The position numbers were made by a program, and so were the translations under genes. The notes below the pieces were generated by a model, which did no database searches, had not been told where the DNA came from, and worked only from the letters and a program-made list of their open reading frames with translations. A stretch of 35,741 nucleotides of DNA from a virus: IMG/VR virus record IMGVR_UViG_3300019487_000065, positions 1-35,741 of that record; one strand, 5' to 3'. Shown in pieces: positions 5,999 to 35,491 of this stretch (position 1 is the stretch's first letter; every line of letters begins with the position of its first letter).

Positions 5999-6713
5999 AC
6001 GAAAACGAACAACTATCGGTGATACGTTCGGACGTTTGACGGTGATCGGGCGCGCACGACCTGCACCGAGTGGTCAGCCGCGTTGGCGTTGTCGTTGCTC
6101 TTGCAAGACGATCAAGGTCGTTCAGGGCAGCGCTCTGACAAGTGGACACACACAGTCGTGCGGCTGCTTGGGTACTGAACGTCGACGAGAAGCGTCTCGC
6201 ACGCACGGCATGAGCGGCACGCCCGAACATCGAGCTTGGAAGGGCATGTGGGCACGGTGCCTCGCGAAGCCGGGTAGCAAGTACTTTCGCCTGTACCCAA
6301 AGCAGGGCATCAAGGTGTGCGCACGTTGGAAAAAGTTCGAGAACTTCTTCGCTGATGTCGGACCACGTCTGTCGGCACAACATTCACTCGATCGCTGGCC
6401 CGATCCCCACGGTGACTACAAGCCTGGCAACGTGCGCTGGGCGACGATGAAGGAACAGAGTAACAACCGGCGCGACAACCGTATCGTCGAGTTGGACGGC
6501 GAGAAGTTCACACTCAGCGCCCTCGCCGACGCGGCAGGCTTCAAGGTGGGAACGTTACGCTCGCGGCTAGCCAAGATGGGCTGGGACGCACGCAAGGCCG
6601 TAGCAGCGCCCCTGAACGTTACGTCGATTCGATCGTTCACCGACGCGGAGCTGAAACGTCAGCGGACAGCGATCGAAACCGAGATTCAACGCCGACGACG
6701 AGGAAAACAGTAA
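5991..6713 (+). CDS. phage AP2/HNH-associated-type DNA-binding protein (homing-endonuclease-like, no nuclease motif seen)
   Basis: FGRLTVIG ... RCRCSC ... SCGC, then RAWKGMWARC, VCARWKKFENFFADVGPR and SLDRWPDPHGDYKPGNVRWATMKEQSNN. This pattern is common in phage proteins annotated as homing-endonuclease-like. I see no HNH or GIY-YIG catalytic motif. Confidence 0.6.
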   Translation: MRKRKRTTIGDTFGRLTVIGRARPAPSGQPRWRCRCSCKTIKVVQGSALTSGHTQSCGCLGTERRREASRTHGMSGTPEHRAWKGMWARCLAKPGSKYFRLYPKQGIKVCARWKKFENFFADVGPRLSAQHSLDRWPDPHGDYKPGNVRWATMKEQSNNRRDNRIVELDGEKFTLSALADAAGFKVGTLRSRLAKMGWDARKAVAAPLNVTSIRSFTDAELKRQRTAIETEIQRRRRGKQ

Positions 6714-7864
6714 TGACACATGTATCGAAGAAGCTGGCAGACACTGTAGGAAGTGCTATTCGCGGTGACGATACAGCTAAATTTTTTCAAAAACTGGGAA
6801 TGCAAATTCACGGCAATTTGCAAACGTTAACCGGTTCGCGCTCGATCGGTGAATCGACACTGTCGGCAGGGGCGGTAGTGCACATATTGGGATCGGTTGA
6901 TCCGAAATATCGGGGACTGAACTTTCTGCCGCCAGACACGTATCAGGAATACCAGACGCGTTACGTGCACATGCCAGCGCGTTGGACGATGTTCGGATTT
7001 CCCACCTTCCGTGTAACAAAGGATCTTGTAACGTCATTACTGCTCACTGAGTGTCGTGGAATTAGAGGTCGCGATCTGAAGTTTCCATTTCCAACCTTCT
7101 TTGTCGAACTGCCACAAGATCCGGTAATCCTAAAGACGACAGACGTGGCAGGTACTGAAGTTCCTGTGCGCTGGATCAGCGTCCACAACATGCACGTGCC
7201 CGAGAGTGACAAAAACGCGAAGGCACTTGCTGAGATATTTGATGCCGAGACAACAGCGTTCCATGCAGGCCATAGCAACGCGAAACAGTTTCAAACAGCA
7301 ATCGTAGAGACAGAACGCAAATCGTCACTTCGGGGCTACACGGATCTGTGTCTCATGTCGCCGACTGTTGATGTAGATGTCAGCCGCGCGCATCTAGTGC
7401 CCGAAGACGACGAATCTATCGAGGAATGGTTGGAAGGAACGCGCAATACGAGAGCCGAAGAGTTTAAATTACAGCCTACAGACAACAACGCCTTGATGGC
7501 CGCGCATAGATTGATCGCTAACCTCAGTCTGTACTTGGCGAGTAACAAAACTGAATGGACGGTCAACAAATCGCGTAATCGTCTGAAGCACGGCAAAGGT
7601 GGAATTTCCGCACCGTTGGTATGGGATGTTGGAAAAGCGGTAAAGGTTCCTGATCATCTTGTGGCTGCAGCACAGAACTTCGCCGTGCGCGGAACTAACA
7701 AGGCTCAATGGCGTGTATCTTCGCGCTTTGTGGTCCGTGGACACTGGCGCGATCAGGTGTGCGGTCCTGGACGTAGTGACAGGAAACGAATCTGGATCCA
7801 ACCGCATTGGAAGGGTCCAGAAGCTGCAGCGGCTATAACACGTCTATACGAAGTAACGACATGA
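6713..7864 (+). CDS. hypothetical protein in a low-GC patch
   Basis: 383-aa ORF with a TAATG junction upstream. Sampled 60-nt lines give roughly 40-57% G+C against more than 60% in the flanks. C-terminal motif RFVVRGHWRDQVCGPGRSDRKRIWIQPHWKGP. No family recognised. Confidence 0.65.
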   Translation: MTHVSKKLADTVGSAIRGDDTAKFFQKLGMQIHGNLQTLTGSRSIGESTLSAGAVVHILGSVDPKYRGLNFLPPDTYQEYQTRYVHMPARWTMFGFPTFRVTKDLVTSLLLTECRGIRGRDLKFPFPTFFVELPQDPVILKTTDVAGTEVPVRWISVHNMHVPESDKNAKALAEIFDAETTAFHAGHSNAKQFQTAIVETERKSSLRGYTDLCLMSPTVDVDVSRAHLVPEDDESIEEWLEGTRNTRAEEFKLQPTDNNALMAAHRLIANLSLYLASNKTEWTVNKSRNRLKHGKGGISAPLVWDVGKAVKVPDHLVAAAQNFAVRGTNKAQWRVSSRFVVRGHWRDQVCGPGRSDRKRIWIQPHWKGPEAAAAITRLYEVTT

Positions 7865-8097
7865 ACGCGACCCGTCGACGAATTCTGGAGCATCTCGCAC
7901 GTGCGACCGCACGTGTGTACGGACTCGACTTGGTCGCTGCGAAGATCGCGTCGCGGGCTTCATTGTACGTCCATCTGGGATGGCTCGAAGAGACAGGCCA
8001 CGTCGAAGGTGCCGAAGAGCCCGTCACGTTGCGCCGGAGCTACAAGATCACCGACAAGGGCCGTGCTGTGCTCCTGCCCGAGGCGCGCGTGCGATGA
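7861..8097 (+). CDS. small winged-helix transcriptional regulator (PadR/ArsR-like)
   Basis: ATG 7861 forms an ATGA overlap with the upstream stop. 78 aa: RRRILEHLARATARVYGLDLV ... LYVHLGWLEETGHVEG ... YKITDKGRAVL. Confidence 0.6.
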   Translation: MNATRRRILEHLARATARVYGLDLVAAKIASRASLYVHLGWLEETGHVEGAEEPVTLRRSYKITDKGRAVLLPEARVR

Positions 8098-23252: not shown

Positions 23253-23713
23253 CAGTTCTTCTCGGCGAAGTCGCGGCGCTCGACGGCGTCACGACGCGAG
23301 GCGAAGTGGTTCTTGGGCAGCGGCTTGCCGCGTCCCTTCTTCACGATGCGCAGCTTGCGTGCCTCGACCTCGGCGCGGCGGAACCGCTCGACTTCGGCAA
23401 GAAAGTGCCGACGCTCGGTACGCCAGCCGTTGCGGTTCTTGTTTGCGCGGCGACGGCGCTCCTCGTTCCGCCAGCGAGTGTGCCACGAGCGGTCGTAGAC
23501 GATGTAGTTGAAGCGCCGAGTGACCGTCGCCTGCGGATGCTCCGGCACGCCGCGCGACAGCGCAGCACGCACGTCACTCGACAGCTTGTCGAAGTCGGGG
23601 CCGTACTTCGCTTCGAGCGCAGCGTCGTGAGTTTCACGCTCACGCTCACGGCGCTTGTTAGCAGCGATGCGCACGTGCGGCGCGGTGTAAGGCGGCGGAT
23701 CGTACGTACGCAT
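23249..23713 (-). CDS. hypothetical highly basic protein
   Basis: ATG 23713 (MRTYDPPPY) with GAGG 6 nt upstream. The longer track ORF (to 23782) would run through the terminator hairpin up to the tRNA. Confidence 0.6.
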   Translation of the reverse strand: MRTYDPPPYTAPHVRIAANKRRERERETHDAALEAKYGPDFDKLSSDVRAALSRGVPEHPQATVTRRFNYIVYDRSWHTRWRNEERRRRANKNRNGWRTERRHFLAEVERFRRAEVEARKLRIVKKGRGKPLPKNHFASRRDAVERRDFAEKNW

Positions 23714-23723
23714 GATGGACCTC

Positions 23724-23780
23724 GGGAAAGAAGGAGCCGGCAAGGGCGAGGTACGCGACCTCGGCGCATCCCCTGCCGGC
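23724..23780 (-). terminator. composite GC-rich hairpin followed by a U-rich tract, downstream of the RNA operon
   Basis: On the minus strand the sequence reads GCCGGCAGGGG-AUGCGC-[CGAGGU-CGCGU-ACCUCG]-CCCUUGCCGGC, then UCCUUCUUUCCC. The outer stem has 11 pairs. One is G.U on the minus strand and would be an A.C mismatch on the plus strand. Confidence 0.45.
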
Positions 23781-23785
23781 ATGAG

Positions 23786-23859
<74 letters not shown>

Positions 23860-23942
23860 AAAAAGGAAGCCCCTAGGTGTGGGCTAGACAGCTGTGAGGC
23901 TGTGTCGCTTGGACTTCGGGGCATAATGAAACCGTCGAGTGT

Positions 23943-24035
23943 TACGCGCTTGTTGTGAATGCAGTGGTTTATGAGACCACAACCTTCTCCTTATCAGGGA
24001 GATGCTCTCCAATTGAGCTATGCGTGTTAGCGCGC
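23943..24035 (-). ncRNA. 93-nt aberrant tRNA-like RNA (GAT anticodon-type arm plus a second CAT anticodon-type hairpin in place of a T arm)
   Basis: The outer stem GCGCGCT/AGCGCGT has 7 pairs, one of them G.U. The D arm TAGCTCAATTGGAGAGCA is canonical. The arms are TCTCC-CTGATAA-GGAGA and then GTGGT-CTCATAA-ACCAC. The inner acceptor pairs at only 4 of 7 positions. Confidence 0.4.
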
Positions 24036-24051
24036 AAACGGTGACGGCTTC

Positions 24052-24185
24052 GGTGGGGATTTGAGGAGTCGAACCTCTGGCTTGTAAACAATCGACTGGT
24101 GGCGCGGTCTTGAGGGCGCGCCGAGTGCCGCTGTTGGTTGTGCTTGATCCGTATTCAAGTGCCGGACCGCCCGGCGTCAATCCCC
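24052..24185 (-). tRNA. 134-nt tRNA-Arg(ACG)-like gene with a 64-nt insertion in the variable region
   Basis: The acceptor GGGGATT/AATCCCC pairs 7/7. The D arm is GCCG-GGCGGTC-CGGC and the anticodon arm is CTTGA-ATACGGA-TCAAG. The T arm is AGAGG-TTCGACT-CCTCA. The 3' end reads ACC. 64 nt separate the anticodon stem from the T stem. Confidence 0.5.
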
Positions 24186-24220
24186 AGAATCTTCAGTTGT
24201 CAGAACAGCAATTCGTAGCG

Positions 24221-24348
24221 TGGCGCAGGATGTTGGAATCGAACCAACCAGCGTGTACACAGTAGCGCGGTGCTGCCGGAGCAGCGAGTGGGTACGGTGG
24301 AGATACTTTCCGGGTAAGGGAAGCGGACGCCCAGCGTCCTTATCCTGC
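24221..24348 (-). tRNA. 128-nt tRNA-like gene (TAC in the anticodon position) with a 58-nt insertion in the variable region and encoded CCA
   Basis: The acceptor GCAGGAT/ATCCTGC pairs 7/7, followed by G-CCA. The D arm is GGAC-GCTGGGC-GTCC. The anticodon-type arm is CTTCC-CTTACCC-GGAAA, with 4 pairs plus a C.A mismatch. The T arm GTTGG-TTCGATT-CCAAC is canonical. Confidence 0.5.
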
Positions 24349-24457
24349 GTGATAACTGATCACCGAGTGCGTCGCGCTGGTTCTTTCCAGATGGTAGGAA
24401 GGTGCTCTTTGCAGAGCGGCTTGTAAGCGCGTCGCTGGTGGTGACCAGCTGATGAGC

Positions 24458-24486
24458 ACCCTAGCGAGCGGTGTTCTCGATGTCAA
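24458..24486 (-). promoter_or_regulatory. candidate promoter TTGACA-N17-TAGGGT driving the RNA operon
   Basis: On the minus strand the -35 TTGACA is at 24486-24481 and the -10 TAGGGT at 24463-24458, with a 17-nt spacer ending CGC as in the other two predicted promoters. Confidence 0.45.
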
Positions 24487-24542
24487 GCAGGGAATGCGAG
24501 AGTATGTTCGCAACTAACGGTGTGCGGACCGTTACCCGCAAC

Positions 24543-24932
24543 TCAAGAGGATGCTGGCGACGTAAGCTCAGGGATGTAAATCGTGTGGACACTGGTCGCT
24601 TCGCCCGTCGCTTTCCAGCGCCAGAACCGTTCACCGACGCGTGAAGGCTTCAAGCGTCGCGCCGAGATCACGACGCGTCGCCACTCCGGCGTCACGTAGA
24701 TCGTGTCGCGATCGTGTTCCTTCGTCAGCATTGCGAAGATTGCCGTGAATGCATCGACGCCCTTGTCGTTGTCGAAGTCCTCAGGCGCGAGACCTTGCAA
24801 CGTCGCTTGTGCAGCGCCGAGCATGAGCCCGTACTCGAAGTCGTTGTGGCGACTGATTCCAGCGCACACCGATTCGAGTGCGTTAGCCATGCGGCACGCA
24901 ACACGACCTGTGACCGTACGCGGCTTACCCAT
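24543..24932 (-). CDS. hypothetical protein
   Basis: 129-aa ORF with AGGAG 7 nt upstream of ATG 24932. Confidence 0.6.
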   Translation of the reverse strand: MGKPRTVTGRVACRMANALESVCAGISRHNDFEYGLMLGAAQATLQGLAPEDFDNDKGVDAFTAIFAMLTKEHDRDTIYVTPEWRRVVISARRLKPSRVGERFWRWKATGEATSVHTIYIPELTSPASS

Positions 24933-25165: not shown

Positions 25166-25741
25166 CTACACCGCAACGATGTTCGTAGGCGCGATCGACC
25201 AGCCGAGCTTCTTGCCGGTCTGCAGAAAAATCTGCGCCGAGCGTGCAATCAGCGCCGAGACCGTGACGATGAATGGCAGGTGCTCGCCGTCCTCGCACGT
25301 GGGCACACCCGCGGTTTCGTCATCGACGACGAAGTTCTCGTCCCAGATCACTCGACCGAACGCGCCATCAGCTGCCAACGCGCCGTGGAGCGTCGCCGGC
25401 TTGTGCTCGTTCTCGCGCGCGAACCGCTGAACCACGTGACGCGCTTCGCCGTTGTCAAGGCAGTCGATGATGAGGTCGCTGTCACGCATGAGCACGAACG
25501 CGTTGTTCAACTCCAGCTTCGCGTTGCGCACGTCGATCTTCGTCCCCCACAGGAACTGCATCGTCGCCTTGAGCGCTTCGACCTTGAGCTTGCCGCCGCC
25601 CGGCTTGCCGTGGAACTGCGACAGCATGTTCTTCGCCTCAACACGATCAAAGTCGATCACGCGCAACTCACCTGCGTTGCGCAGCAACATGGCGACGTGC
25701 GAGCCCAGTGCACCGACTCCGACGATGGTGATCTTCTTCAT
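25166..25741 (-). CDS. ThiF/MoeB/HesA-family E1-like adenylyltransferase (short form)
   Basis: ATG 25741 has GAGGAA just upstream. KKITIVGVGALGSHVAMLLRNAG (GxGxxG), VIDFDRVEAKNMLSQ and LIIDCLDNGEARHVV ... KPATLHGALAADGAFGRV follow the ThiF-family consensus. Confidence 0.75.
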   Translation of the reverse strand: MKKITIVGVGALGSHVAMLLRNAGELRVIDFDRVEAKNMLSQFHGKPGGGKLKVEALKATMQFLWGTKIDVRNAKLELNNAFVLMRDSDLIIDCLDNGEARHVVQRFARENEHKPATLHGALAADGAFGRVIWDENFVVDDETAGVPTCEDGEHLPFIVTVSALIARSAQIFLQTGKKLGWSIAPTNIVAV

Positions 25742-25775
25742 AGCTTCCTCGGGACGTTCTACAGGTTGCATTCAT

Positions 25776-25967
25776 TCACGCATCGCACCAGTCATCGGTC
25801 GTCGTCGTACGGTGCCCGACGTCGAACGCAGCATGTACCGCCTGGTGCACCTGTGCACGTTGCGTCTCGTCGATCGAGAACTGCTTCATCAGCGCGTCCT
25901 CGATCGCCTTCAGGTGCTCGTTGGCGCTGCCGCACTTCAATTTCAGGCACTCGATCGGCGTCTTCAT
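25776..25967 (-). CDS. hypothetical 63-aa protein
   Basis: ATG 25967 forms an ATGA overlap with the dCMP deaminase stop. It is the only non-Arg-rich part of the 300-aa track ORF. Confidence 0.5.
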   Translation of the reverse strand: MKTPIECLKLKCGSANEHLKAIEDALMKQFSIDETQRAQVHQAVHAAFDVGHRTTTTDDWCDA

Positions 25968-26461
25968 GGCTTCACTGAGACTGCTTGCGGCGGCGGCGTC
26001 CACTTCGCCAGCGACTCCGCGATCGGGACGGAGAGCAGATCGATGCCGTTGGCGAACGCGGCACCTGGCAGGTCGAACGCTTTGCCACCGATGTACTCGG
26101 AGCCGTAGACGATGCGTTTGATGCCCGTCTGCAGCGCCGCCATGAAGCAGTCGCGGCAGGGGCTCGCCGTCGTGTAGAGCGTACCACCTGCGAGCCGTAC
26201 GCCGTAGCGCGCCGCCGTGATGATGGCGTTCTTCTCGGCGTGGATCGTCCGCACGCAGCTCTGCCGACCGTTGATCTCGACGAGGTCGTGACCGACTTCG
26301 TCGCACGATGGCAGACCGCTCGGCGCACCGCCGTAGCCCGTCGACATGATGCGCTTGTCGAGCGCGATCACAGCACCAACGCGAGCACGATCGCAGCTCA
26401 TGCGAAGGCTCACAGCGTCGGCGATGATCATGAAGTACGTGTCCCAGTCTGGTCTGCTCAT
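25964..26461 (-). CDS. dCMP deaminase (cytidine/deoxycytidylate deaminase zinc-binding family)
   Basis: 165 aa. It has the HAEKNAI and PCRDC zinc motifs with the typical spacing, and an N-terminus (RPDWDTYFM) like ComEB-type deaminases. Confidence 0.85.
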   Translation of the reverse strand: MSRPDWDTYFMIIADAVSLRMSCDRARVGAVIALDKRIMSTGYGGAPSGLPSCDEVGHDLVEINGRQSCVRTIHAEKNAIITAARYGVRLAGGTLYTTASPCRDCFMAALQTGIKRIVYGSEYIGGKAFDLPGAAFANGIDLLSVPIAESLAKWTPPPQAVSVKP

Positions 26462-26772
26462 GTGGATCGGCCTTTCTTGTGCTTGCGCTCGAAGAGGTGA
26501 CGGATCTCGATGGACACCTGCTCGACGTCGTCACGCGGCGCCGGATGCCCCAGACGTGGATCCGGCTCGGGGATTTCAAGGATGCCGACGCGCGAACGGA
26601 ACGCCTGCGTCGGATCGCCGATGGTCTCGTAACCGAGCTGCAAGCACTCGCGATAGACCGCCGCACAACGCTCTGCAACGTCGCGTGTCGCGATCGTCCC
26701 TTCGAGCCCGAGCGAGAATTCGATGCCGGTTTGACCCTCGGTCCAGAGCACGACGTGAAAGACGGTCTTCAT
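26458..26772 (-). CDS. hypothetical protein
   Basis: 104-aa ORF with ATGA overlaps at both ends. Confidence 0.6.
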   Translation of the reverse strand: MKTVFHVVLWTEGQTGIEFSLGLEGTIATRDVAERCAAVYRECLQLGYETIGDPTQAFRSRVGILEIPEPDPRLGHPAPRDDVEQVSIEIRHLFERKHKKGRST

Positions 26773-27038
26773 GATCGGTACCTCGCAATGGCAGGTGGCA
26801 GCGGACGCGGTAACGGCAAGGGCTCGGCGCTGTCGGGCTCGAAGCCGATCTCACGGACCTCGGCATCGGTCGTGTTCTTGTCGGTGAGCAGCGCTTCAAG
26901 CGCCTCACAGCGCTTCGCCATCTCGGCGATCTGGATTTGCGCTCGACGAAAGTCACGTGTGATCCACGTACCGAACCACAACGCTCCGACGAACGGCAAC
27001 GTCTGCTCGAACACGTGCATCCAGTCCACGAACGTCAC
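26769..27038 (-). CDS. small membrane protein (one N-terminal TM)
   Basis: GTG start in a GTGA overlap. LPFVGALWFGTWI hydrophobic segment, then a coiled region and a Pro-rich tail. Confidence 0.55.
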   Translation of the reverse strand: MTFVDWMHVFEQTLPFVGALWFGTWITRDFRRAQIQIAEMAKRCEALEALLTDKNTTDAEVREIGFEPDSAEPLPLPRPLPPAIARYRS

Positions 27039-27238
27039 CGGTACGGTCCCTCGGGTACGGGCAACTCGACCTCGTACGCGATGACGACACCGCGCGCACC
27101 GACGAGATCGATGCGGGCGTCAGTGTTGTTGCGGATCTCGACCTGGATGCGTTCGGGCGCCGTAACGATCGCGCCACGCTTGCGCAGGTACTCTGCGACG
27201 GCCTCTTGAACTTCGCTGAGACTGAGCTGCACGTGCAT
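27035..27238 (-). CDS. hypothetical 67-aa protein
   Basis: ATG 27238 with AGGAG 8 nt upstream. Confidence 0.55.
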   Translation of the reverse strand: MHVQLSLSEVQEAVAEYLRKRGAIVTAPERIQVEIRNNTDARIDLVGARGVVIAYEVELPVPEGPYR

Positions 27239-27242
27239 CCTT

Positions 27243-27572
27243 TCACTCCTGGTACCACACGGCGACGAGCCGCTGATCTTCGTTCAAGTGCAGCTCGACG
27301 AGCTGACCGACCCACGGCCAGTTGTCTTCCGTGATGCCGTGCACCGACGTCGAGTGGAAGTCCATCGACTTTGTCGTGCGCATGGTCAGTTCACTGGTGA
27401 GCCGGATCTCTCGCGCGATCGACGCATGCTTCGCGATTAACGCTGCCGAGATCGCATCGACGGCGTCGTAGCCACGCTCGTCGAGCGCGTACATGAGCTT
27501 GCCCCACGAGTTCTTCCTGTCGAAGTCCCATACGACGGCGCGGCGAATACCCGACCAGCCGACCGTCGGCAC
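27243..27572 (-). CDS. hypothetical protein
   Basis: GTG 27572 shares one base with the NUDIX stop (TAGTG). ATG 27494 is the alternative. The upstream part of the track ORF overlaps the NUDIX gene. Confidence 0.5.
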   Translation of the reverse strand: MPTVGWSGIRRAVVWDFDRKNSWGKLMYALDERGYDAVDAISAALIAKHASIAREIRLTSELTMRTTKSMDFHSTSVHGITEDNWPWVGQLVELHLNEDQRLVAVWYQE

Positions 27573-28075
27573 TACAGCTCGCCGAGGGCTAGAACGGGTC
27601 GTGCGAGCGGATGGCATTGGGGGCAGGCATCGTACGTGCAACCGCTATCGCCGACGGCGTCACAGCTCGACATTGGTCGTGTCGCCTCGATGTGCTTCAC
27701 GAGCTGTGGGTAATGCCAGTAGAACGCGGGCGAGCACGGCATGCGCTGGATGGCGTACAGCGGATTGACCCAGCGCAGCTCCTGATGATCGAGTGCGCGG
27801 GGCGGCGTCGACATCGCAGCCTGCTCGATAGCGTACAGCTCGATGACGAACGAGATGTCGAGGTGCAGCATCGCCATCGAGATGAACTCGCCGACGCGCA
27901 CAACGCAGTCGCACTCCTCGCGCCACTCGCGTGCGAGCGCTTGCGACGGCGACTCGCCTGGATCGATCTTCCCGCCGGGCAGCTCCCAGAGGTCCGGTCG
28001 ATACGCAGTCTTCTTGCGCAGGCCCATCAGCACGTAGCCGTCGCGAATCAACGCCCCTGAGACAACGCGCAGCAT
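27572..28075 (-). CDS. NUDIX hydrolase (MutT-like)
   Basis: ATG 28075 lies 1 nt after the upstream stop. The Nudix box GGKIDPGESPSQALAREWREEC fits Gx5Ex7REUxEE. Confidence 0.8.
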   Translation of the reverse strand: MLRVVSGALIRDGYVLMGLRKKTAYRPDLWELPGGKIDPGESPSQALAREWREECDCVVRVGEFISMAMLHLDISFVIELYAIEQAAMSTPPRALDHQELRWVNPLYAIQRMPCSPAFYWHYPQLVKHIEATRPMSSCDAVGDSGCTYDACPQCHPLARPVLALGEL

Positions 28076-28076
28076 G

Positions 28077-28322
28077 TCAGTGCGGGCAGAGAAGCGTACC
28101 GGGTGCGCAACCGCAACCACCCTCGGCACGATTCTTCTCGGCCAGCTCCTTGAAGCTCGGTTGTGGACCGACGAAGTCGACGAACAAGCCGCGATCGAGC
28201 AGCTCGGCGCGCGTCTTGTCGACGATCTCCTGAGCGAACTCGCCAGCCCACGACTTCATCGCACTCTCGTAGACGACGTCGAGGACTTGCTGCAGGTCGC
28301 GTTGATCGCCGATCACGCTCAC
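28077..28322 (-). CDS. hypothetical 81-aa protein
   Basis: GTG 28322 forms a GTGA overlap with the stop of 28319-28639. The rest of the 168-aa track ORF is Arg-rich and overlaps that gene. Confidence 0.5.
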   Translation of the reverse strand: MSVIGDQRDLQQVLDVVYESAMKSWAGEFAQEIVDKTRAELLDRGLFVDFVGPQPSFKELAEKNRAEGGCGCAPGTLLCPH

Positions 28323-28639
28323 TCGTGAACCTGACCGCAGTTCGGGCAGCGCATGTTGCTCCAGCCGAACGCCGTCTTCGGGCGCAGCTGGATCAGGTTG
28401 TACGGACGCGCTTCCGTCGGCGGGTAGCGGTCGACGACGAAGTCGCGGAAGTCCGCGTCGCGATCGGCCGGGATGCCGGGCACGCCGCCGTTGCGCACGG
28501 CTTCGGTGACCCAGCCCTTGACGTCGTTCTCGCTCGAATCGCGGAACACCGGATCCGGTAGATCGCCGTTCTGCATCTTCCACGTGACGTTCACGCGGGC
28601 CTCGTCGTCTCGAATCACACGTACCAGTTCGTCAGCCAT
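28319..28639 (-). CDS. hypothetical protein with C-terminal CPNCG
   Basis: 106-aa ORF with AGGAGA 5 nt upstream of the ATG. A predicted promoter lies immediately upstream. Confidence 0.6.
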   Translation of the reverse strand: MADELVRVIRDDEARVNVTWKMQNGDLPDPVFRDSSENDVKGWVTEAVRNGGVPGIPADRDADFRDFVVDRYPPTEARPYNLIQLRPKTAFGWSNMRCPNCGQVHE

Positions 28640-28659
28640 GACACTCTCCTGAGCCCTTG

Positions 28660-28693
28660 ACGGTAGCGACGAGCATACGGCAAGTCAAGAGCA
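28660..28693 (-). promoter_or_regulatory. candidate promoter TGCTCTTGACT-N17-TACCGT
   Basis: On the minus strand the -35 TTGACT is at 28688-28683 and the -10 TACCGT at 28665-28660. It includes the conserved 11-mer (plus strand AGTCAAGAGCA, 28683-28693). Confidence 0.45.
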
Positions 28694-28707
28694 ATGTCGC
28701 AGCGGAA

Positions 28708-29109
28708 TCAACGGTACGGAGATCCCATCTGCGATCGCTTGCGTAGCTCGGGGACCCAGATCGGGTCGGCGACACGTGACCTACCATAGACCTCGCGACC
28801 CGGCATGCTATCCATCAGCGCCTTGCGCACGAGCACGGTCAGGTCCGAGCTTGCGATCCACCAGTTGAGCGGCCGGCCGAGCGCGTTCTCGATCGCGACG
28901 AACGACGAGATGTCCTCGCGCGATGGACCGGGCAGACCGCCGCCAGGATGCGTGTGTGCGAAGCCTGAGAGCCAGCCATCACGATTCGCTTGCCACAGCA
29001 CATCCCACAGCGTGCGGCTGTCGGGCAACGCGCCGCCCGAACGACCACCCGGCTCGTGCCAGAAGATGGGCTCGTGGTGGATGCTGATGACGACACCGGT
29101 CTCGATCAT
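28708..29109 (-). CDS. JAB/MPN (JAMM) metallopeptidase
   Basis: 133 aa. HHE is followed by FAHTHPGGGLPGPSREDI, i.e. HxH ... SxxD with one extra residue in the spacer. ATGA overlap upstream. Confidence 0.75.
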   Translation of the reverse strand: MIETGVVISIHHEPIFWHEPGGRSGGALPDSRTLWDVLWQANRDGWLSGFAHTHPGGGLPGPSREDISSFVAIENALGRPLNWWIASSDLTVLVRKALMDSMPGREVYGRSRVADPIWVPELRKRSQMGSPYR

Positions 29110-30188: not shown

Positions 30189-30620
30189 CTATTCGGGATG
30201 CTCTGCAAGCCACTTCGCGTGGCGCTCGTCGTCCCAGTAGTCGATCAGAATCAAGTGGATGCACAGGCGTGCTTCACCATCGACGATTCGCGCAGCGACC
30301 GACGGTATCGACCAGCCAACCGATGTCTTACCGAACATCGCGATGAAGTCGGGATAGACCGCGAAGCCATTCGGCAACATCACGTCGACGGAGTTGCTCG
30401 TGATGTCGATCTTACTTTCGCTGTAGATCTCCCAATAGAAACTGTTCTGCTCGACGAGCCAATCCGGGTGCGGTTTGCCCGCTGCATCGCACTCGGCTTT
30501 GAGCTGCTCGACGGCCTCGCGCTCTTCCTTGAGCCACTCAGCGTTCTCGCGTTCGAAGCGTTTGCGAACGTCGTCGCGGAACTGCTGCGCGACTTTCTCC
30601 ATCGGCCACTCAACGCTCAC
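30189..30620 (-). CDS. hypothetical protein
   Basis: GTG 30620 forms a GTGA overlap with the upstream stop. The alternatives are ATG 30602, ATG 30635 and the track start 30656. Confidence 0.55.
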   Translation of the reverse strand: MSVEWPMEKVAQQFRDDVRKRFERENAEWLKEEREAVEQLKAECDAAGKPHPDWLVEQNSFYWEIYSESKIDITSNSVDVMLPNGFAVYPDFIAMFGKTSVGWSIPSVAARIVDGEARLCIHLILIDYWDDERHAKWLAEHPE

Positions 30621-30847
30621 AGCGAGTACTCCCATGCGTCGAAGCTGCTGTTCCACGTCCAGCCTAGCGCCGCAACACGAGCCAGATCGCCATCACCAAG
30701 CATGTCGCGATGTACACCGCCGACGTAGATCACGTCGTGTTCGGCGCTGATGTCACCGGGGTTGTCGCGCGGGCTCAAGTACTCCTCAAAGATCTTGAGA
30801 CCCGTCGTGATCTTCTGGAACGTCGTCATGTCTTTCGCTAGCAACAT
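30617..30847 (-). CDS. hypothetical 76-aa protein
   Basis: ATG 30847 shares one base with the upstream stop. The N-terminal part of the track ORF overlaps the upstream gene. Confidence 0.5.
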   Translation of the reverse strand: MLLAKDMTTFQKITTGLKIFEEYLSPRDNPGDISAEHDVIYVGGVHRDMLGDGDLARVAALGWTWNSSFDAWEYSL

Positions 30848-31188
30848 CACACGTAGTCGACGGGGCGAACTGCCATATGGATGAGGGTCTCGCGTCCAAT
30901 CGCCTGCAGTTCTTCGTCGGTGAATTGCGGGTTCCGTCGCAGCCACAAATCGAACTCGTCATGATCGATCTGCTCGACCATGAACATCTGTTGTGCACCC
31001 TTGAAGTCGGTGAACAACATCGGCCCAGTCCACTCGCCGTGCCACATCGGATCGAGCGTTGCACCGATCGATTCGAGCGCGTCGAATATCGTCGCGTGCC
31101 CTCGCTGCTGAATCTTTGCGCGAACCTTGAGCGCGTTCGCTTTGAGTGATGCCGCCGCTGCTGCTGCTTTCAACTTGTCGACGTCCAC
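30847..31188 (-). CDS. hypothetical protein
   Basis: GTG 31188 with GGGAG 6 nt upstream. 113 aa. Confidence 0.55.
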   Translation of the reverse strand: MDVDKLKAAAAAASLKANALKVRAKIQQRGHATIFDALESIGATLDPMWHGEWTGPMLFTDFKGAQQMFMVEQIDHDEFDLWLRRNPQFTDEELQAIGRETLIHMAVRPVDYV

Positions 31189-31197
31189 GTTCGCTCC

Positions 31198-32145
31198 CTA
31201 GTTGACGTTGCGAAACACGACTAGCACACCGAGGTTCATTGCTTCACGTACCACAGCCGGTAGCGACTCCAGCGTGAACTTGGTGTCGCCCTTTTCGCCG
31301 GTCGCGTGGTTCACGAGGCAGATACCGGCGTCGATGATGTGCAGTCGCTCGTCACAGACGCACTCGAAGCGTCGACGTTCGAGCCGGTAACGCACGACCC
31401 ACTCGTTGCGGTTGCGCACCTTGTTCCAACTGAGCAGTTCTGCACCGCCGACCGTGAGCGCGGCACGTGCCGCCGTCTCGAAGTCGACTTTGGCCATCTC
31501 GCGACGACCCGCACCGTCACCGAGCTGCCTCACCAGATTCTGGCGTCGCTCCTCGGCGGCACGCTTAGCTTCTTCCTCGGCGCGTAGACGTTCAAGTTCA
31601 GCGCGACGACGTGCTGCTTCGATGCGTTGCCACACAGCCATCCGAAACGCTGCGTCGAGCGCGGGCGTGACGCCCTTGATGGCGTTGACGTCCGTCGCTT
31701 GGTCCTCGTACGCACGCAGGACATCTTCCTCGGGACCGAGCGGCATCTCGACCTGACGAAAGAACAGCGGACCGTCGGACGTGATGCAGCCAACACTGAC
31801 ACGCGCGAAGCGATCAACATCGTCGTTGATCAGGTTCACGCGCGGCAGTCGCTTGGCGACATCCTCGACGTTGATCACGACGCGATCGATGAAGCTCTCG
31901 GTCGCGAAGTGATCACCGACGAGGTAGCCGAAGTGCACCTGCCCAAGCGTGGCCGCTGATAGCTCTGCAGCTTCGTGCAACGTCGCCGTACGACCCTTGA
32001 GCAGCGTGAAGCTGTACCAGCCGTGTTCGGCCGGTGTGGGACCGACGAGCGTCCACTTGCGCGAGAACGATCGCAGCTCGCGACCGCCAATCCACGGCAG
32101 CACGATGCGTTCGTCGTTCTGATGCAGTAGGTCTCGCCAGCTCAT
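31198..32145 (-). CDS. hypothetical protein with central charged coiled coil, directly downstream of the vWA gene
   Basis: 315 aa. The ATG lies 3 nt after the vWA gene stop. It contains EAARRRAELERLRAEEEAKRAAEERRQ. No family recognised. Confidence 0.6.
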   Translation of the reverse strand: MSWRDLLHQNDERIVLPWIGGRELRSFSRKWTLVGPTPAEHGWYSFTLLKGRTATLHEAAELSAATLGQVHFGYLVGDHFATESFIDRVVINVEDVAKRLPRVNLINDDVDRFARVSVGCITSDGPLFFRQVEMPLGPEEDVLRAYEDQATDVNAIKGVTPALDAAFRMAVWQRIEAARRRAELERLRAEEEAKRAAEERRQNLVRQLGDGAGRREMAKVDFETAARAALTVGGAELLSWNKVRNRNEWVVRYRLERRRFECVCDERLHIIDAGICLVNHATGEKGDTKFTLESLPAVVREAMNLGVLVVFRNVN

Positions 32146-32148
32146 GTT

Positions 32149-34086
32149 TCACGCACACGCCCAAACGGGCTTCTTCAGCAGATCGGTCTTCAGGATTTGA
32201 TCAACGAGCGTCAGGCGCGGTGCCGCAACCGCTCGCACGGTGACCGGCGTCGCAGCGATCAGGGCTCGAATCGTGCGCGGGATTGCATACGTGTCCTCGA
32301 ACGTCTGCTCGTTGATCATGAAGCACGGAATACCGAGACGCTTCGCCGTCTCACGAACCGCGATGTTGTTCTCGCCGTTCTGCTGCTGATGACGGTACGC
32401 CGCTGCGCCGTTGTGCGGGACCGTCTTCACGAAGCCGAACGCCATCGGACGCAGACCCGATGCCGCGACCTGCTGATCGAACGCGTGCGCTTCCTCGTCA
32501 CCGACGAAGATGAACAGCGCGTCCTCGTCGGCCTGGGGCGGGTACTTCATCAGTTCACGCACGCCGGCACCGTAGTCGGTACCGCCACTCGCCGTGATGC
32601 CCTGGAACGCGTTCGTGACGCCGGCTGCCGATGCGTGCTTGAGCTTGACCTCACGACCCACCGTGTTGAACACGGCAATGTGCGTGCGATCGGCCGGGAA
32701 GCCCTGCAGGAACTTCGCGACGTACGTCTTCGCTGCCTCGATCGATGACTGCATCGAGCCCGAGATGTCGACGAAGAAGTAGACGCGGATGTTCTTCGCG
32801 ACTTCCTCGACGGCCTTCTTGATTGCCGTGTCAGCTGCCTCGGCGAGCTTGTCCTTCACTTCCTTGGACTGGACGTTCTTCGCGACGTTGAGCGTGCGCG
32901 AGTCCTCAGCCTTGGCGAGCGCCCTCTCCCAACGTGCCTTGATGTCGGGCACGTCGAGCAGACCCAGCTCTTCCAACGTTGGCGTTGCGATCACAAGATC
33001 ACGGTCCGAGAGCGCCTTCGCCTCGATCGCAGCTGCGACCACCGCACGCGTCAGTTGGCCCTTCGGCAGCCGACCCGTGATGGCCTTCCAGTCCGGCTTC
33101 TCGGCGACAATCCGCTCGCAGATCTGCGCCTCGGTCAGCTCGTTCCATGACTCAGCCTGCACGATGTTGATGTCCACCATCGTGCGATGACCGTCCTTGG
33201 ACTGGAGCTGCTTCCAGCGAAGCTCCTCGAAGAACTTGGGCGTGTTCGGCTTGTAGTGCACGCGGCGCGCGAGCTGGATCACCGTCTTGCGGAAACCCGC
33301 CTTGACGAGACCAGTCAGCAGCGGCGGGTTCTCCTCGCGATGACGTAGCCACTTCTCCGCGACCTCAGGCCAACGGCCAAGGAACGGGTGACGCGGCGAC
33401 ACGCCCAGGCCCATCTCGCGGTTGATCGCCGCGATCTCGGGCAGCATGAGCACCTCACGGATGCGCAGCAGGTTCTTGGCGTTCAGATCCTTGTCCTTCT
33501 TACGGATCAGCATCATCGCCTCGCCAATGTCGCGGAAGTCGTCGTCGTAGAACGCGACCTTGTCACCGTCGAGCACGGCGTCACCGCGACGCGTCTGCAC
33601 GAGCATGAACGCGGCGAGCACGACCTTGAGGTCGCGGTGGTCCTGGTTGAACGCATACGACGCCCAGCGCGCGGCGAATTCGTTGTCGAGCTTCCACACC
33701 TCGACGATTTGCTTGTACATCCACGCCGCGACCTCGGGGAAGATGCCCGCGTCGCGGTACTCGCCGATGATCGGATGGTTCGGGCTCGCGTCGGTGCGGA
33801 CGTGCTTGAGCACACCGTTCGGACCGACAGCCTCGGTGATCACACCGAGCTTCGTCTTGAGCGTCTTCTTGCCGCTCTTCGACAGCTTGTAGATGACCGT
33901 GCGCTTGGTGCCGTTGATCTCTTCGACTTTCGGCGTCACGGGTTCCCAACGCACGCCGACGTTGGTGCGCTTGTCCTCGATCACGATGCCGGGACGGCCG
34001 TGATAGAGGTGATCGGTGTAGGTAAGGACCGACGCGATGATGCGCTCGGCCGGACCCAGGTTCTCGCGATTGTTGACGTTGACCAT
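32149..34086 (-). CDS. vWA-domain protein with N-terminal TROVE-like helical module (Ro60/Rsr-like architecture)
   Basis: ATG 34086 with AAGGAG 7 nt upstream. The vWA MIDAS elements are FFVDISGSM, SGGTDYG and IFVGDEE. Upstream, GRWPEVAEKWLRH ... FRKTVIQLARRVHYKP parallels the Ro60 TROVE signature (WGRxLRxAIxxWY ... LLRLSHxKP) from memory. Confidence 0.65.
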   Translation of the reverse strand: MVNVNNRENLGPAERIIASVLTYTDHLYHGRPGIVIEDKRTNVGVRWEPVTPKVEEINGTKRTVIYKLSKSGKKTLKTKLGVITEAVGPNGVLKHVRTDASPNHPIIGEYRDAGIFPEVAAWMYKQIVEVWKLDNEFAARWASYAFNQDHRDLKVVLAAFMLVQTRRGDAVLDGDKVAFYDDDFRDIGEAMMLIRKKDKDLNAKNLLRIREVLMLPEIAAINREMGLGVSPRHPFLGRWPEVAEKWLRHREENPPLLTGLVKAGFRKTVIQLARRVHYKPNTPKFFEELRWKQLQSKDGHRTMVDINIVQAESWNELTEAQICERIVAEKPDWKAITGRLPKGQLTRAVVAAAIEAKALSDRDLVIATPTLEELGLLDVPDIKARWERALAKAEDSRTLNVAKNVQSKEVKDKLAEAADTAIKKAVEEVAKNIRVYFFVDISGSMQSSIEAAKTYVAKFLQGFPADRTHIAVFNTVGREVKLKHASAAGVTNAFQGITASGGTDYGAGVRELMKYPPQADEDALFIFVGDEEAHAFDQQVAASGLRPMAFGFVKTVPHNGAAAYRHQQQNGENNIAVRETAKRLGIPCFMINEQTFEDTYAIPRTIRALIAATPVTVRAVAAPRLTLVDQILKTDLLKKPVWACA

Positions 34087-34181
34087 GACGCTGCTCCTTG
34101 CCACCAGGCGCACGTATCCGTCGCGCCATCTTTCGATTCGCGCTACGTGGCACAACTCCACGTAGAACGAGGCAGCTGCGA

Positions 34182-34215
34182 GTGTTAGCGCCGGGTCACA
34201 AGCAAGTCAAGAGCA
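34182..34215 (-). promoter_or_regulatory. candidate promoter TGCTCTTGACT-N17-TAACAC
   Basis: On the minus strand the -35 TTGACT is at 34210-34205 and the -10-like TAACAC at 34187-34182. It includes the conserved 11-mer (34205-34215) and lies about 100 nt upstream of the vWA gene. Confidence 0.4.
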
Positions 34216-34492
34216 ACTTGCTCGCAACGCGATCTCCGACGATGTTATCGTAGGCCGTGGGGACGTCGAAGCGCGCGACACGCCGAAAGCGCCGACAACA
34301 GCGCGCCGCACAACGACATGGCCGTGCTGCAAAGCCGACCCATCGACTACGATCTGGACGCACTGGTAGCGCCCACGCAAAGAAACCGCGATCGCGTCAG
34401 CGATCTGCGCACGTAAGCATCGCGGCACAGACCATCGAGCAATCCGTGCGCTGCGCCGAGTGTGGCGCGCGCCCCGGAGAGCTACATCGCCA

Positions 34493-35491
34493 CTAACCCT
34501 CGAACGTGAAGGTCGCGATCGGGCGACTCTGATCGCCGTACGAACCGTCTGCCGCTGCACGCACACCGTACACGCGGTACGCCGCGTTCACGAACTGGTT
34601 CATGTTCTCGGGCGTGATCTCGATGTAGCGCATCGGCGTCGCCGAGTAGCCGCTCGGACCGCGTGTACCGTCTGCTGCCATTCGGAAGAGCTTGCCGTCG
34701 CGCACCACGAACAGCACGGTGTGATGCCACCAGCGCCACGTACCGTTCGCTTGCTTTGTCGACTGGCCGCAGACAAGGAACGTCGGCAGCGTCGCGACGC
34801 GATCGAGCAGCTCCCTGATGTCGATGACGTTCGAGACGCCCATGCGACGGATGCTGGAACCGTCGGGCAGGATGCGGAAGCACACGTCACCGAAGCCGCG
34901 CCACGGACTCGCACCGGGGTTCTGGTGCAACTCGGGACCCTTCTCCACCAGATCGAACAGCGACGGGATGTTGCCCGCGTGCGTGAAGTCCTGGTTGCGA
35001 CGGTTCAACCACGACAGGAAGAAGTTCGTGAACGACGTGCAGTGGAACGCCGGGTACGTGCGGTTGAGGACGTTGGGCCACTCCTTCACCGTGCCGCCGG
35101 TCTTGCCGGCGCCGTACGTGATGATGAACTTGTCGCCCTGCCACAGACCGCGTCCGGGTCCGTAGCGCACCGGCTTGCCGGTGATCGCCGTGACGAACGT
35201 CTGGAATGCGGTCCACGTCGAGCTGTTGCACGGCACGAACTCGGTCGGGGGCTGCGTCGTTTCATCGCTGGGCTTGTGCTTTGCGATGGCAGCGTCGAGC
35301 GCGCCTTGCGTCTGCGGACCCGCGATCCCGTCGTCGTCGACATCGGGACGATCGAGCTGGAACGCGAGCACGGCCGCCGTCGTCAGCTTGCCGTAGATAC
35401 CGTCGACGTCGCCGGGATCGTAGCCGCACGCCTTCAGCTTGAGCTGCAGCATCTCGACATCGGGACCCTTGTCACCTGGCTTGAGAATCAC
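34493..35491 (-). CDS. endolysin: N-terminal peptidoglycan-binding domain plus C-terminal putative Cys/His peptidase-amidase domain
   Basis: GDKGPDVEMLQLKLKACGYDPGDVDGIYGKLTTAAVLAFQ ... DGIAGPQTQGAL is a PG_binding_1-type repeat. The C-terminal domain has candidate catalytic residues FHCTSF and WWHHTVLFV (inference). Confidence 0.8.
   Translation of the reverse strand: MILKPGDKGPDVEMLQLKLKACGYDPGDVDGIYGKLTTAAVLAFQLDRPDVDDDGIAGPQTQGALDAAIAKHKPSDETTQPPTEFVPCNSSTWTAFQTFVTAITGKPVRYGPGRGLWQGDKFIITYGAGKTGGTVKEWPNVLNRTYPAFHCTSFTNFFLSWLNRRNQDFTHAGNIPSLFDLVEKGPELHQNPGASPWRGFGDVCFRILPDGSSIRRMGVSNVIDIRELLDRVATLPTFLVCGQSTKQANGTWRWWHHTVLFVVRDGKLFRMAADGTRGPSGYSATPMRYIEITPENMNQFVNAAYRVYGVRAAADGSYGDQSRPIATFTFEG

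Follow-up and report, generated by a model that had tools for sequence, protein, structure and literature searches.

What kind of RNA is encoded by a viral locus that holds clear acceptor, D, anticodon, and T arms of tRNA genes and no cloverleaf of ordinary proportions? The question is raised by a 35,741-nucleotide stretch of DNA from an uncultured virus (IMG/VR record IMGVR_UViG_3300019487_000065), here called the window, in which an original prediction made from the sequence alone described three tRNA-like genes on the minus strand, (i), (ii), and (iii), the first two with 58 and 64 nt in the variable region. We find that (i) to (iii) are real and conserved members of an undescribed phage RNA family, tRNA-like and with a structured rod of ~50 nt in the variable position. 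With high confidence, the locus as a whole is a conserved, covarying, and modular RNA operon of ~590 nt that was derived from tRNA genes, is built around a repeated rod, and lies in a tRNA island; the phage is uncultured and has jumbo phages as relatives.

Elements (i) and (ii) are tRNA shaped and carry a giant variable region

The RNA locus runs on the minus strand from a promoter at 24486 to a U-run at 23860 and is composed of five modules, each of which folds independently: a leader, (i), (ii), (iii), and a terminal stem (Table 1). In the direction of reading, promoter and leader are followed by (i), a 35-nt spacer, (ii), (iii) within a longer stem, and the terminal stem with its U-run, after which come a tRNA-Met gene and an open reading frame (ORF). 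The coordinates and pairings predicted for all elements were checked on the minus strand and confirmed, and RNAfold returned the pairings listed, with minimum free energy (MFE) z-scores of -2.1 for (i), -2.4 for (ii), and -3.0 for (iii).

Element (i) (24348-24221) has an acceptor stem in which GCAGGAU and AUCCUGC pair at 7/7 positions, the T arm GUUGG-UUCGAUU-CCAAC, and an anticodon-type loop, CUUACCC, with C at position 37. The 58 nt between its anticodon-type stem and its T stem consist of a rod (24299-24258) and a UACACGC linker (24257-24251). Element (ii) (24185-24052; 134 nt) has the acceptor stem GGGGAUU/AAUCCCC, which a U24186-A pair extends to 8 bp, a D arm that contains GG, a canonical T arm, the anticodon stem-loop (ASL) CUUGA-AUACGGA-UCAAG, and a 3' end that reads ACC. 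Its 64-nt variable region contains a rod (24135-24087; a helix, an ACUC/ACCA loop, and a helix) and the linker UACAAGC (24086-24080).

ARAGORN called tRNA-Met alone in the window, and neither ARAGORN nor the Rfam tRNA model (RF00005; threshold, 29 bits) matched (i) or (ii), even at E <= 10. After deletion of 30 to 65 nt of the variable region, ARAGORN called (i) as tRNA-Val(tac) in 437 deletion variants and (ii) as tRNA-Arg(acg) in 80; the oversized variable region is thus the sole formal obstacle to a tRNA call. A canonical 7-bp acceptor stem and a 5-bp T stem with a UUCRANY loop were found, conserved and covarying, in (i) and (ii) and were lacking in (iii) and the leader. Variable regions of 58 and 64 nt lie outside both the 4 to 5 nt of class I tRNAs and the ~10 to 25 nt of class II tRNAs. 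With respect to a 7-nt anticodon loop with U33 and a purine at position 37, the AUACGGA loop of (ii) conforms, (i) has C37, and A33 is found in several members of the wider family described below. We conclude that (i) and (ii) are tRNA shaped with 58 and 64 nt in the variable region, as was originally described.

The rod is a repeated module, and the leader contains it in permuted form

The rod is defined by a helix, an ACUC/ACCA-type internal loop, and a second helix, followed by a UACA(A/C)GC linker. The variable regions of (i) and (ii) share one plan: a linker, helix a, an ACUC strand, a capped helix b, an ACC(A/G) strand, the return strand of helix a, UACA(A/C)GC, and the T arm. Alignment of the two inserts gave a score of 37, compared with 16.5 +/- 3.1 in shuffles (0/2000). 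The linker sequence TACAMGC is over-represented throughout the window (22 matches versus 6.8 expected), and the weight therefore rests on its position in the structure and not on its count.

The leader, which has neither an acceptor nor a D arm, folds into an 11-bp basal stem, a 4x4 internal loop (ACCA/ACUC), and a 9-bp stem, followed by UUACAAGC (24425-24418), and its apex bears two hairpins, GCUCU-GCAA-AGAGC and CUUCC-UACCAUCU-GGAAAG. Read in permuted order, it runs from the ASL-like hairpin through AACC, a helix, ACUC, the 3' end and then the 5' end of the module, ACCA, a helix, and UUACAAGC to a hairpin. In this order the leader was colinear with (ii) over 63 nt, with an alignment score of 36, compared with 17.7 +/- 3.3 in shuffles (0/2000) and 24 for the native order. 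An echo of the anticodon-type arm in the leader had been taken as a sign of duplication, and the permuted alignment bears this out. On the evidence of these alignments, we conclude that the leader and the ASL, rod, and linker of (ii) are paralogues related by circular permutation.

Element (iii), as first delimited at 24035-23943, gave an Rfam tRNA match of 43.9 bits at 24027-23956, in which 3/7 acceptor pairs are nonstandard. It has no real acceptor stem, and the outer 7-bp stem once proposed to close it gave way to a rod of 9 bp plus 7 bp that spans 24051-23928. Closure is by P2 (GCGCGCU/AGCGCGU; 7 to 8 bp), an internal loop (ACCGUUU/AACACUC), and P1 (GAAGCCGUC/GACGGUUUC; 9 bp), with CACACGCA and GCACACAACA as unpaired, CA-rich strands. 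R2, a covariance model of the leader, matched the rod of (iii) (P1-loop-P2-AACACGC) weakly (20.4 bits; E=0.02) and found the leader module also in L150, L140, and L151, the last at 49 bits. We conclude that the locus contains four copies of the rod, two capped within tRNA shapes (i and ii) and two open and carrying the RNA ends (leader and iii). The description of the variable-region sequence as an inserted extra does not hold, as it is a conserved module present in 4/5 modules and in a wider phage family.

Every helix type of the locus is supported by covariation

Fifteen loci with the same RNA locus were gathered through homologues of a 129-aa ORF upstream of it and through DNA patterns, with 10 to 12 of them covering each element. 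Nucleotide identity between relatives was 76 to 85% in the RNA locus and 70 to 85% in the flanking coding genes. For the nine full-length loci, RNAalifold returned five separate domains and no long-range helices, 97.2% of cells were paired, and 29/127 pairs had changed on both sides, compared with 13.9 +/- 2.1 in shuffles (0/500) and 1 to 6 in slid controls. A single large ornate RNA was considered for the locus and rejected, as no Rfam large-RNA family matched and no helices join the modules. Covariation supported every helix type: the acceptor, the D stem, and both rod helices of (i) and (ii) (9 and 6 covarying pairs, respectively), the leader stems, and P1, P2, the ASL, and the T stem of (iii). 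Covariation of the acceptor and D pairings had been named beforehand as a test, and it was found; in the case of (i), it also redrew the D arm, given earlier as GGAC-GCTGGGC-GTCC, as a 6-bp stem with a 3- to 4-nt loop.

Within this narrow clade, the T stems of (i) and (ii) never vary, and the ASL stem and T arm of (i) are invariant. The ASL of (ii) is identical in 11/12 aligned sequences and in L007/L150, the difference in L148 being one extra G, and the outer (8th) acceptor pair of (ii) alternates between U-A and C-G. The residues U8, A14, and A21 are not kept in (ii). In (i), C37 is accompanied by a loop and a discriminator that both vary, with C33 in one relative. Its encoded CCA, present in the window as predicted, is shared by L131 and L143 only, and relatives read GCCAC, ACGAC, TCGAC, or ACAAC, such that the CCA is not a conserved feature. 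In (iii), the ASL has GAU in the window, UAU in most relatives, and CUUGAAC in L150. The second anticodon-like hairpin ascribed to (iii), GUGGU-CUCAUAA-ACCAC, is indeed present in the window; only L150 shares it, the T arm being canonical and the loop UAU in nine other relatives.

Modules were gained and lost as units, with neighbouring ORFs unchanged: (i) is missing in three relatives (L007/L150, L147, and L148), tRNA-Met is missing in six, and L150 has a second (iii)-like module. The latter (L150:5853-5990, in a 196-kb relative) follows tRNA-Met (5776-5852), has the same P1 sequence (AAAGCCGUC/GACGGCUUU), and contains a tRNA-like body with an 8- to 9-nt anticodon loop that ARAGORN labels 'tRNA-???'. 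The spacer motif CUGACAACUGAA survives in two relatives without (i) (L007 and L148) and is missing in L147. In Rctr197k, GACAACUGAAGA also lies just ahead of a ribosome-binding site (L149:6806-6817).

Megablast against GenBank phages returned tRNA-Met matches only and no close relative at the DNA level. By protein comparison, the nearest record is Virus Rctr197k (KX853510.1; L149), a 197-kb genome from a methane-oxidizing bioreactor with ~55% identity, which has been placed near PaBG-like jumbo phages (PMC7412058). Pattern scans added little: the exact ASL pattern found two true loci and ordinary tRNA-Arg genes, the 15-mer CTGGTCACCACCAGC gave mostly chance matches among the matches listed, a tail pattern found L005 only, and a single metagenome scan with CCATCTGGAAAG, a pattern that is not invariant, found one already known contig only. 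Two genome-collection scans gave no match and so no prophage or host clue.

Rod-carrying RNAs form a wider family in phage tRNA islands

A ThiF-like gene lies upstream of the RNA locus, and by anchoring on this gene 19 IMG/VR loci were fetched, 18 of them from contigs of 74 to 452 kb. The gene marks the start of a tRNA island in these loci, nearly all of which are on jumbo-size contigs: most have a tRNA array downstream of ThiF according to Rfam, and Rctr197k has 11 annotated tRNAs at the same place. A covariance model built from (ii), R1, scored 154.6 bits on (ii) and 25.7 bits (E=4e-5) on (i), and found 17 further full-length copies of 126 to 153 nt in eight contigs of 85 to 377 kb (L151-L155, L158, L159, and L156, the last of which duplicates L155). 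The copies occur one to four per locus, downstream of the ThiF-like gene and between ordinary tRNAs, with scores of 25 to 55 bits (E of 1e-13 to 5e-5); ARAGORN and Rfam call none of the 17.

Almost all copies have a 7/7 acceptor, a canonical T arm, a 5-bp ASL with a 7-nt loop, and a variable region of 56 to 86 nt, and in most of them YUACA(A/C)G lies 1 to 4 nt ahead of the T stem. Their 7/7 acceptor stems are of at least 15 different sequences and their anticodon-like triplets are of 11 kinds, those of the family including ACG, UUG, UCC, UAG, UCG, AUC, CAU, GUA, and UAC, and several members have A instead of U at position 33. In the family alignment, which was fitted to the model, compensatory changes were seen in 32/32 modelled pairs, 94.2% of cells were paired (versus 61% in shuffles), and the covariation score was 0.787, compared with 0.197 in shuffles and at most 0.142 in slid controls; model fitting inflates these figures, though not by the margin seen. 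The ThiF proteins of the phages that carry the family are only 53 to 63% identical. No Rfam family matched (i), (ii), or the leader, and no description of a rod-carrying tRNA-like family was found in the literature searched.

The ThiF-like gene was itself considered as TcdA-like, and comparison showed no specific TcdA likeness. Standard transfer-messenger RNA (tmRNA) genes occur in the ThiF-linked island of two loci (L160:6326-6696 and L162:5202-5559; 149 and 133 bits), and L158:5086-5133 gave a partial, sub-threshold match to permuted-tmRNA models. Classification of the window RNAs as tmRNA was rejected, as neither ARAGORN nor Rfam made such a call and the third acceptor pair is G3-C70 in (ii) and A3-U70 in (i).

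The locus is bounded by a conserved promoter and a terminator-like stem

The sequence TTGACA-N17-TAGGGT ahead of the leader had been described as a good promoter. Both hexamers are kept in all 15 homologous loci, one TTAGGGT variant excepted, and Rctr197k has TTGACA-N17-TAGGTT at the same place. A generic promoter scan does not call the window sequence, and by our count TAGGGT has 3/6 matches to TATAAT. Transcription would start from this conserved promoter (24486-24458).

At the other end, the terminal module (23859-23927) was identified by scan as a terminator-like site, and compensatory changes were found in both of its stems (helices 19-23). This module probably forms the 3' end of the RNA operon or else attenuates its transcription as a terminator. 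The tRNA-Met beyond it (23785-23859), which the operon had been predicted to reach, is initiator-like: U1 and U72 are mismatched, and its anticodon stem has three G-C pairs at the base. It is present in L131, L146, L148, and L150 and absent in L002, L139, L144, L134, L136, and L132. Because a structured stem and U-run (23922-23859) precede tRNA-Met and the gene is absent from six relatives, we conclude that tRNA-Met is an optional neighbour and not a fixed part of the operon. In L148, unrelated sequence, possibly an inserted element, breaks tRNA-Met (1823-1900) after GAAGGTCGT.

Table 1. Features of the RNA locus and of a candidate partner gene, by position in the window
Feature	Position	Strand	Description
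Predicted promoter TTGACA-N17-TAGGGT	24458..24486	-	-35 at 24486-24481 and -10 at 24463-24458, read off the sequence
Leader module	24349..24452	-	~100 nt; MFE z-score -4.4; covariation over 14 sequences
Element (i)	24221..24348	-	128-nt tRNA-like RNA; 58-nt variable region
Conserved spacer motif CUGACAACUGAA between (i) and (ii)	24192..24203	-	Nearly invariant in alignment A2
Element (ii)	24052..24186	-	tRNA-like RNA; 64-nt variable region
Element (iii)	23928..24051	-	D arm, ASL, and third hairpin on a rod
Terminal module	23859..23927	-	Stem GCCCC (23922-23918)/GGGGC (23873-23869) around hairpin ACAGC-CUCACA-GCUGU; U-run 23868-23859
tRNA-Met(CAU)	23785..23859	-	ARAGORN; Rfam 62.5 bits
Helical-repeat and vWA protein, candidate partner by inference	32149..34161	-	645-670 aa; Pfam VWA

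The RNAs most likely mimic tRNAs

We infer that the RNAs most likely mimic tRNAs rather than decode. Against decoding stand the C37, variable loop, and variable discriminator of (i), the A33 of several family members, the loss of U8, A14, and A21 in (ii), the presence of rod modules that cannot be charged, the lack of a conserved CCA, and the normal tRNAs nearby. As a mechanism, which we put forward tentatively and at somewhat below even odds, host RNA polymerase would make one precursor, and the acceptor/T-arm minihelices, which are intact in (i) and (ii), would be cut by RNase P and 3'-end tRNA-processing enzymes to release stable RNAs of ~100 to 190 nt. The released RNAs would not decode; instead, their authentic-looking anticodon and T arms would engage tRNA-recognizing proteins, and the shared rod would be a common handle for one further protein, as in Y RNA logic. 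As a decoy or tether, they may counter host nucleases directed at tRNAs, or they may take part in RNA surveillance, and a protein of Ro60-like architecture encoded 7.7 kb upstream is a candidate rod-binding partner. Decoy and scaffold roles are both compatible with the findings, and we favour a scaffold or mimic. For the whole statement, identity together with a mechanism in which non-decoding tRNA mimics use the rod as a protein handle, we estimate a probability of about 0.5. The observations that weigh against it concern the proposed partner and Y RNA likeness, the anticodon arms, and the gene that follows the locus, and each is given below with the evidence to which it belongs.

A Ro60-like architecture is a lead to a protein partner

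Phage Ro60 with Y-RNA-like partners is documented (PMC4201824, PMC12135203, and PMC7824862), and YrlA of Mycobacterium smegmatis is cut by RNase P and receives CCA (PMC4201824). The protein encoded 7.7 kb upstream of the RNA locus, on the same strand, is 645 to 670 aa in length and has an N-terminal beta domain, ~300 aa of helical repeats, and a vWA domain. It was modelled by AlphaFold (predicted local distance difference test [pLDDT], 73.7; predicted template modelling score [pTM], 0.43), and in a Foldseek search with the whole model the top eight PDB matches were Ro60/TROVE proteins, including the Ro60 of phage phiLo (E of 5e-7 to 1e-5 over 474 to 560 columns). A phage TROVE protein was also among the best viral matches.

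The template modelling (TM) scores of the Ro60 matches were only 0.26 to 0.40, and the helical domain modelled alone gave no significant match (best E of 0.32; Ro60 at 0.76 to 1.6). No TROVE signal was obtained with Pfam (VWA only), NCBIfam, or a PDB profile search, and the protein family, with >1600 homologues on contigs of up to 600 kb, is far wider than the narrow RNA clade. No recognizable TROVE gene lies within 4 kb of the RNA locus, the protein 7.7 kb away being the sole candidate, and a Y-like RNA was looked for beside the VWA gene (30500-34600) and not found. Because the whole model points to Ro60 but the helical domain alone does not, Ro60 is kept as a lead only; the chance of a Ro60 link may be put at roughly one in three.

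The RNAs themselves gave no Rfam match to YrlA (RF02553) or Y RNA (RF00019) in 23600-24700, even at E <= 10. The order found in YrlA, a stem that closes a V hairpin, T arm, acceptor-like hairpin, and D arm, is not present in the window: the leader and (iii) have their ends in a stem and lack the succession of T arm, acceptor stem, and D arm. Nor is the motif GNCGAAN(0-1)G, which YrlA and Y RNAs have near the 5' end, conserved, as it occurs exactly only as GUCGAAUG in L136 and L007, on the 3' rod strand of (ii); in its place, the 3' rod strand of (ii) in the window has GUCGAUUG, and the leader has GCGAC.

Rctr197k contains an unannotated 260-nt RNA of YrlA-like topology (L149:5706-5964), right after its TTGACA-N17-TAGGTT promoter. 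The basal stem and CUUACAAGC linker of this first RNA are homologous to the leader of the window. The stem closes a V hairpin, a T arm, a closed acceptor-like hairpin (CCCCCAC/GUGGGGG), a D arm, and an ASL, which is the YrlA order, and the score against Rfam YrlA is 24.5 bits (E=0.035), below the threshold of 69. A second unannotated element of Rctr197k, tRNA-like and without an acceptor (L149:6068-6137; Rfam tRNA, 41 bits), sits on a long stem just after tRNA-Met.

Decoding, cis action, and excision of the rod are weighed as alternatives

By weight, the alternatives to tRNA mimicry are working tRNAs, then a cis-acting leader, then an excised insert, and last decay, which is excluded. According to the first, which we regard as unlikely, the elements are genuine decoding tRNAs of a new structural class, in which at least RNAs of the (ii) type would be CCA-tailed, charged, and used on the ribosome, and the giant arm would be an identity tag or a protection, for instance by setting phage tRNAs apart from those of the host or by shielding them from whatever attacks host tRNAs. 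Working-looking ASLs fit decoding as well as mimicry: 7/7 acceptors, canonical T arms, and 5-bp/7-nt ASLs with many anticodons are found across the family, ordinary phage tRNA-Arg(ACG) genes have the very ASL that is near-invariant in (ii), and in our reading position 37 tracks the anticodon, with G37 after NNG, mostly A37 after triplets that end in U, A, or C, and C37 of (i) as the exception. Moreover, the elements sit inside tRNA islands, and UAC, UAU, and UCC are triplets typical of phage-supplied tRNAs. What argues against decoding is that variable regions of 56 to 86 nt are far beyond those of class II tRNAs, that (i) has C37 and a discriminator that is not conserved, that several members have A33, and that (ii) is missing the core nucleotides U8, A14, and A21. 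The same rod is also found in the leader and (iii), which cannot be charged, and the islands also contain canonical tRNAs with some of the same anticodons (Arg-acg in L155 and L158; Val-tac in L149 and L161). Somewhat less likely still is a third class of tRNA-shaped adaptors with many anticodons and a rod read by a phage factor, which would be either private, defence-resistant tRNAs or decoys that couple tRNA identities to one effector.

A cis-acting leader would serve the downstream mRNA by processing, stabilization, or attenuation at the U-run, with the tRNA-like units as RNase P punctuation. We consider this improbable, since modules come and go while the neighbouring ORFs stay as they are, and since in the tRNA islands of other phages the elements are found amid different genes. 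A role as punctuation would also not account for an ASL that is nearly invariant in (ii) or for the invariance of T arm and ASL stem in (i). Some weight for a cis role comes from the ribosome-binding site and ORF after the U-run: in the six relatives without tRNA-Met, GGAG and the next start codon come no more than ~15 nt after the U-run, and the RNA locus is on the same strand as the flanking genes.

Excision of the rod from pre-tRNAs by a phage or host endonuclease and ligase, to leave ordinary tRNAs, is very improbable. ARAGORN does recognize tRNAs once the variable region is shortened, and jumbo phages often encode RNA ligases and repair enzymes (PMC7824862); however, no ligase or endonuclease was found among the ~35 window ORFs scanned. 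The structure is not that of an intron either, a possibility raised by the original prediction and now disfavoured. In place of a bulge-helix-bulge (two 3-nt bulges and a 4-bp helix), a 4x4 internal loop separates the long helices, a group I intron, with a core of ~200 nt or more, does not fit into ~50 nt, and removal of the helix alone leaves a linker of ~15 nt. Moreover, the rod and UACAMGC linker are the most characteristic conserved feature and the backbone of the leader and (iii), of which nothing would be left if they were cut out.

Decaying tRNA pseudogenes or chance hairpins, with which the lack of ARAGORN and Rfam calls for (i) and (ii) and their moderate z-scores (-2.1 and -2.4) would agree, are excluded by conservation and covariation, as had been anticipated: nucleotide identity of 76 to 85% equals that of flanking enzyme genes, every helix has compensatory changes, the promoter is conserved, and the phages that share the family have ThiF proteins of no more than 53 to 63% identity.

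The RNAs resemble several known systems in part

The closest resemblance in kind is to YrlA-type Y RNAs (RF02553), the partners of Ro60/Rsr, which likewise are tRNA-derived and noncoding and combine a long irregular stem with a tRNA-like domain that has a canonical T arm (Chen et al. 2014; PMC4201824). As with YrlA and with Yrl1/Yrl2 of the Thermus phage phiLo (PMC12135203), paralogues stand side by side, would come from one precursor, and occur in large phages. YrlA RNAs are also substrates of tRNA-processing enzymes, as proposed here for (i) and (ii), and their ends-in-stem topology is common to the leader and (iii). Unlike YrlA, (i) and (ii) have normal tRNA topology, with the stem as a capped variable arm, and possess a full anticodon arm.

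Class II tRNAs (Leu, Ser, and Tyr) and tRNA-Sec likewise have an extra helix between the anticodon and T stems, and bacterial tRNA-Sec, as generally described, has an extended D stem with a small loop, like (i), and an 8-bp acceptor, like (ii). Unlike in class II tRNAs, the variable region is 56 to 86 nt as opposed to ~10 to 25 nt, has linkers of 7 to 8 nt on both sides, an internal loop, and a sequence motif, and is carried by many anticodon types, several members having A33 or C37. Species 1 and species 2 of phage T4 (rnaC and rnaD) are stable RNAs of ~120 to 140 nt that are encoded among phage tRNA genes, are cotranscribed with them, and are matured by tRNA-processing enzymes. The likeness to these RNAs is in size, location, and proposed maturation, and we know of no rod motif that they share. 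In tmRNA, including its permuted two-piece form, a tRNA-like acceptor/T-arm domain is likewise joined to a large extra structure. Unlike tmRNA, the window RNAs have no G3-U70, tag reading frame, or pseudoknots, and they have an anticodon arm.

Gene neighbourhood of the RNA locus

The window is phage-like, with ~62% G+C and genes for dCMP deaminase, RNase H, a NUDIX protein, ThiF-like E1, endolysin, and HNH endonuclease. Upstream of the RNA locus (25166-29109, minus strand) lie the NUDIX hydrolase, dCMP deaminase, and ThiF-like E1 genes and small ORFs, in an order kept in L131-L145, and this block contains a weak JAB-domain match at 28708-29109. At 5991-8000 on the plus strand, the HNH endonuclease gene (5991-6713) is in a stretch of lower G+C (0.52 to 0.57 versus ~0.62 elsewhere), the composition of which suggests a mobile insertion. 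Upstream of the helical-repeat and vWA gene, ~400 nt without a convincing ORF (34087-34492, minus strand) contain a promoter-like TTGACT-N17-TAACAC and a hairpin-rich leader; Rfam gave no match there.

Implications

If confirmed, the findings add to the tRNA islands of large phages an RNA family that is widespread, had not been annotated before, and is missed by tRNA finders and Rfam. The family would show how insertion or permutation of one structured module can turn tRNA genes into mimics, with authentic anticodon and T arms kept. With a covariance model of the family, phage tRNA clusters could be re-annotated where their gaps now pass as 'empty'. The conserved rod and UACA(A/C)GC are a handle on what phages do with tRNA look-alikes, for which the candidate roles are to counter anticodon nucleases, to recruit RNA-surveillance proteins in the manner of Y RNAs, or to provide a private translation supply.

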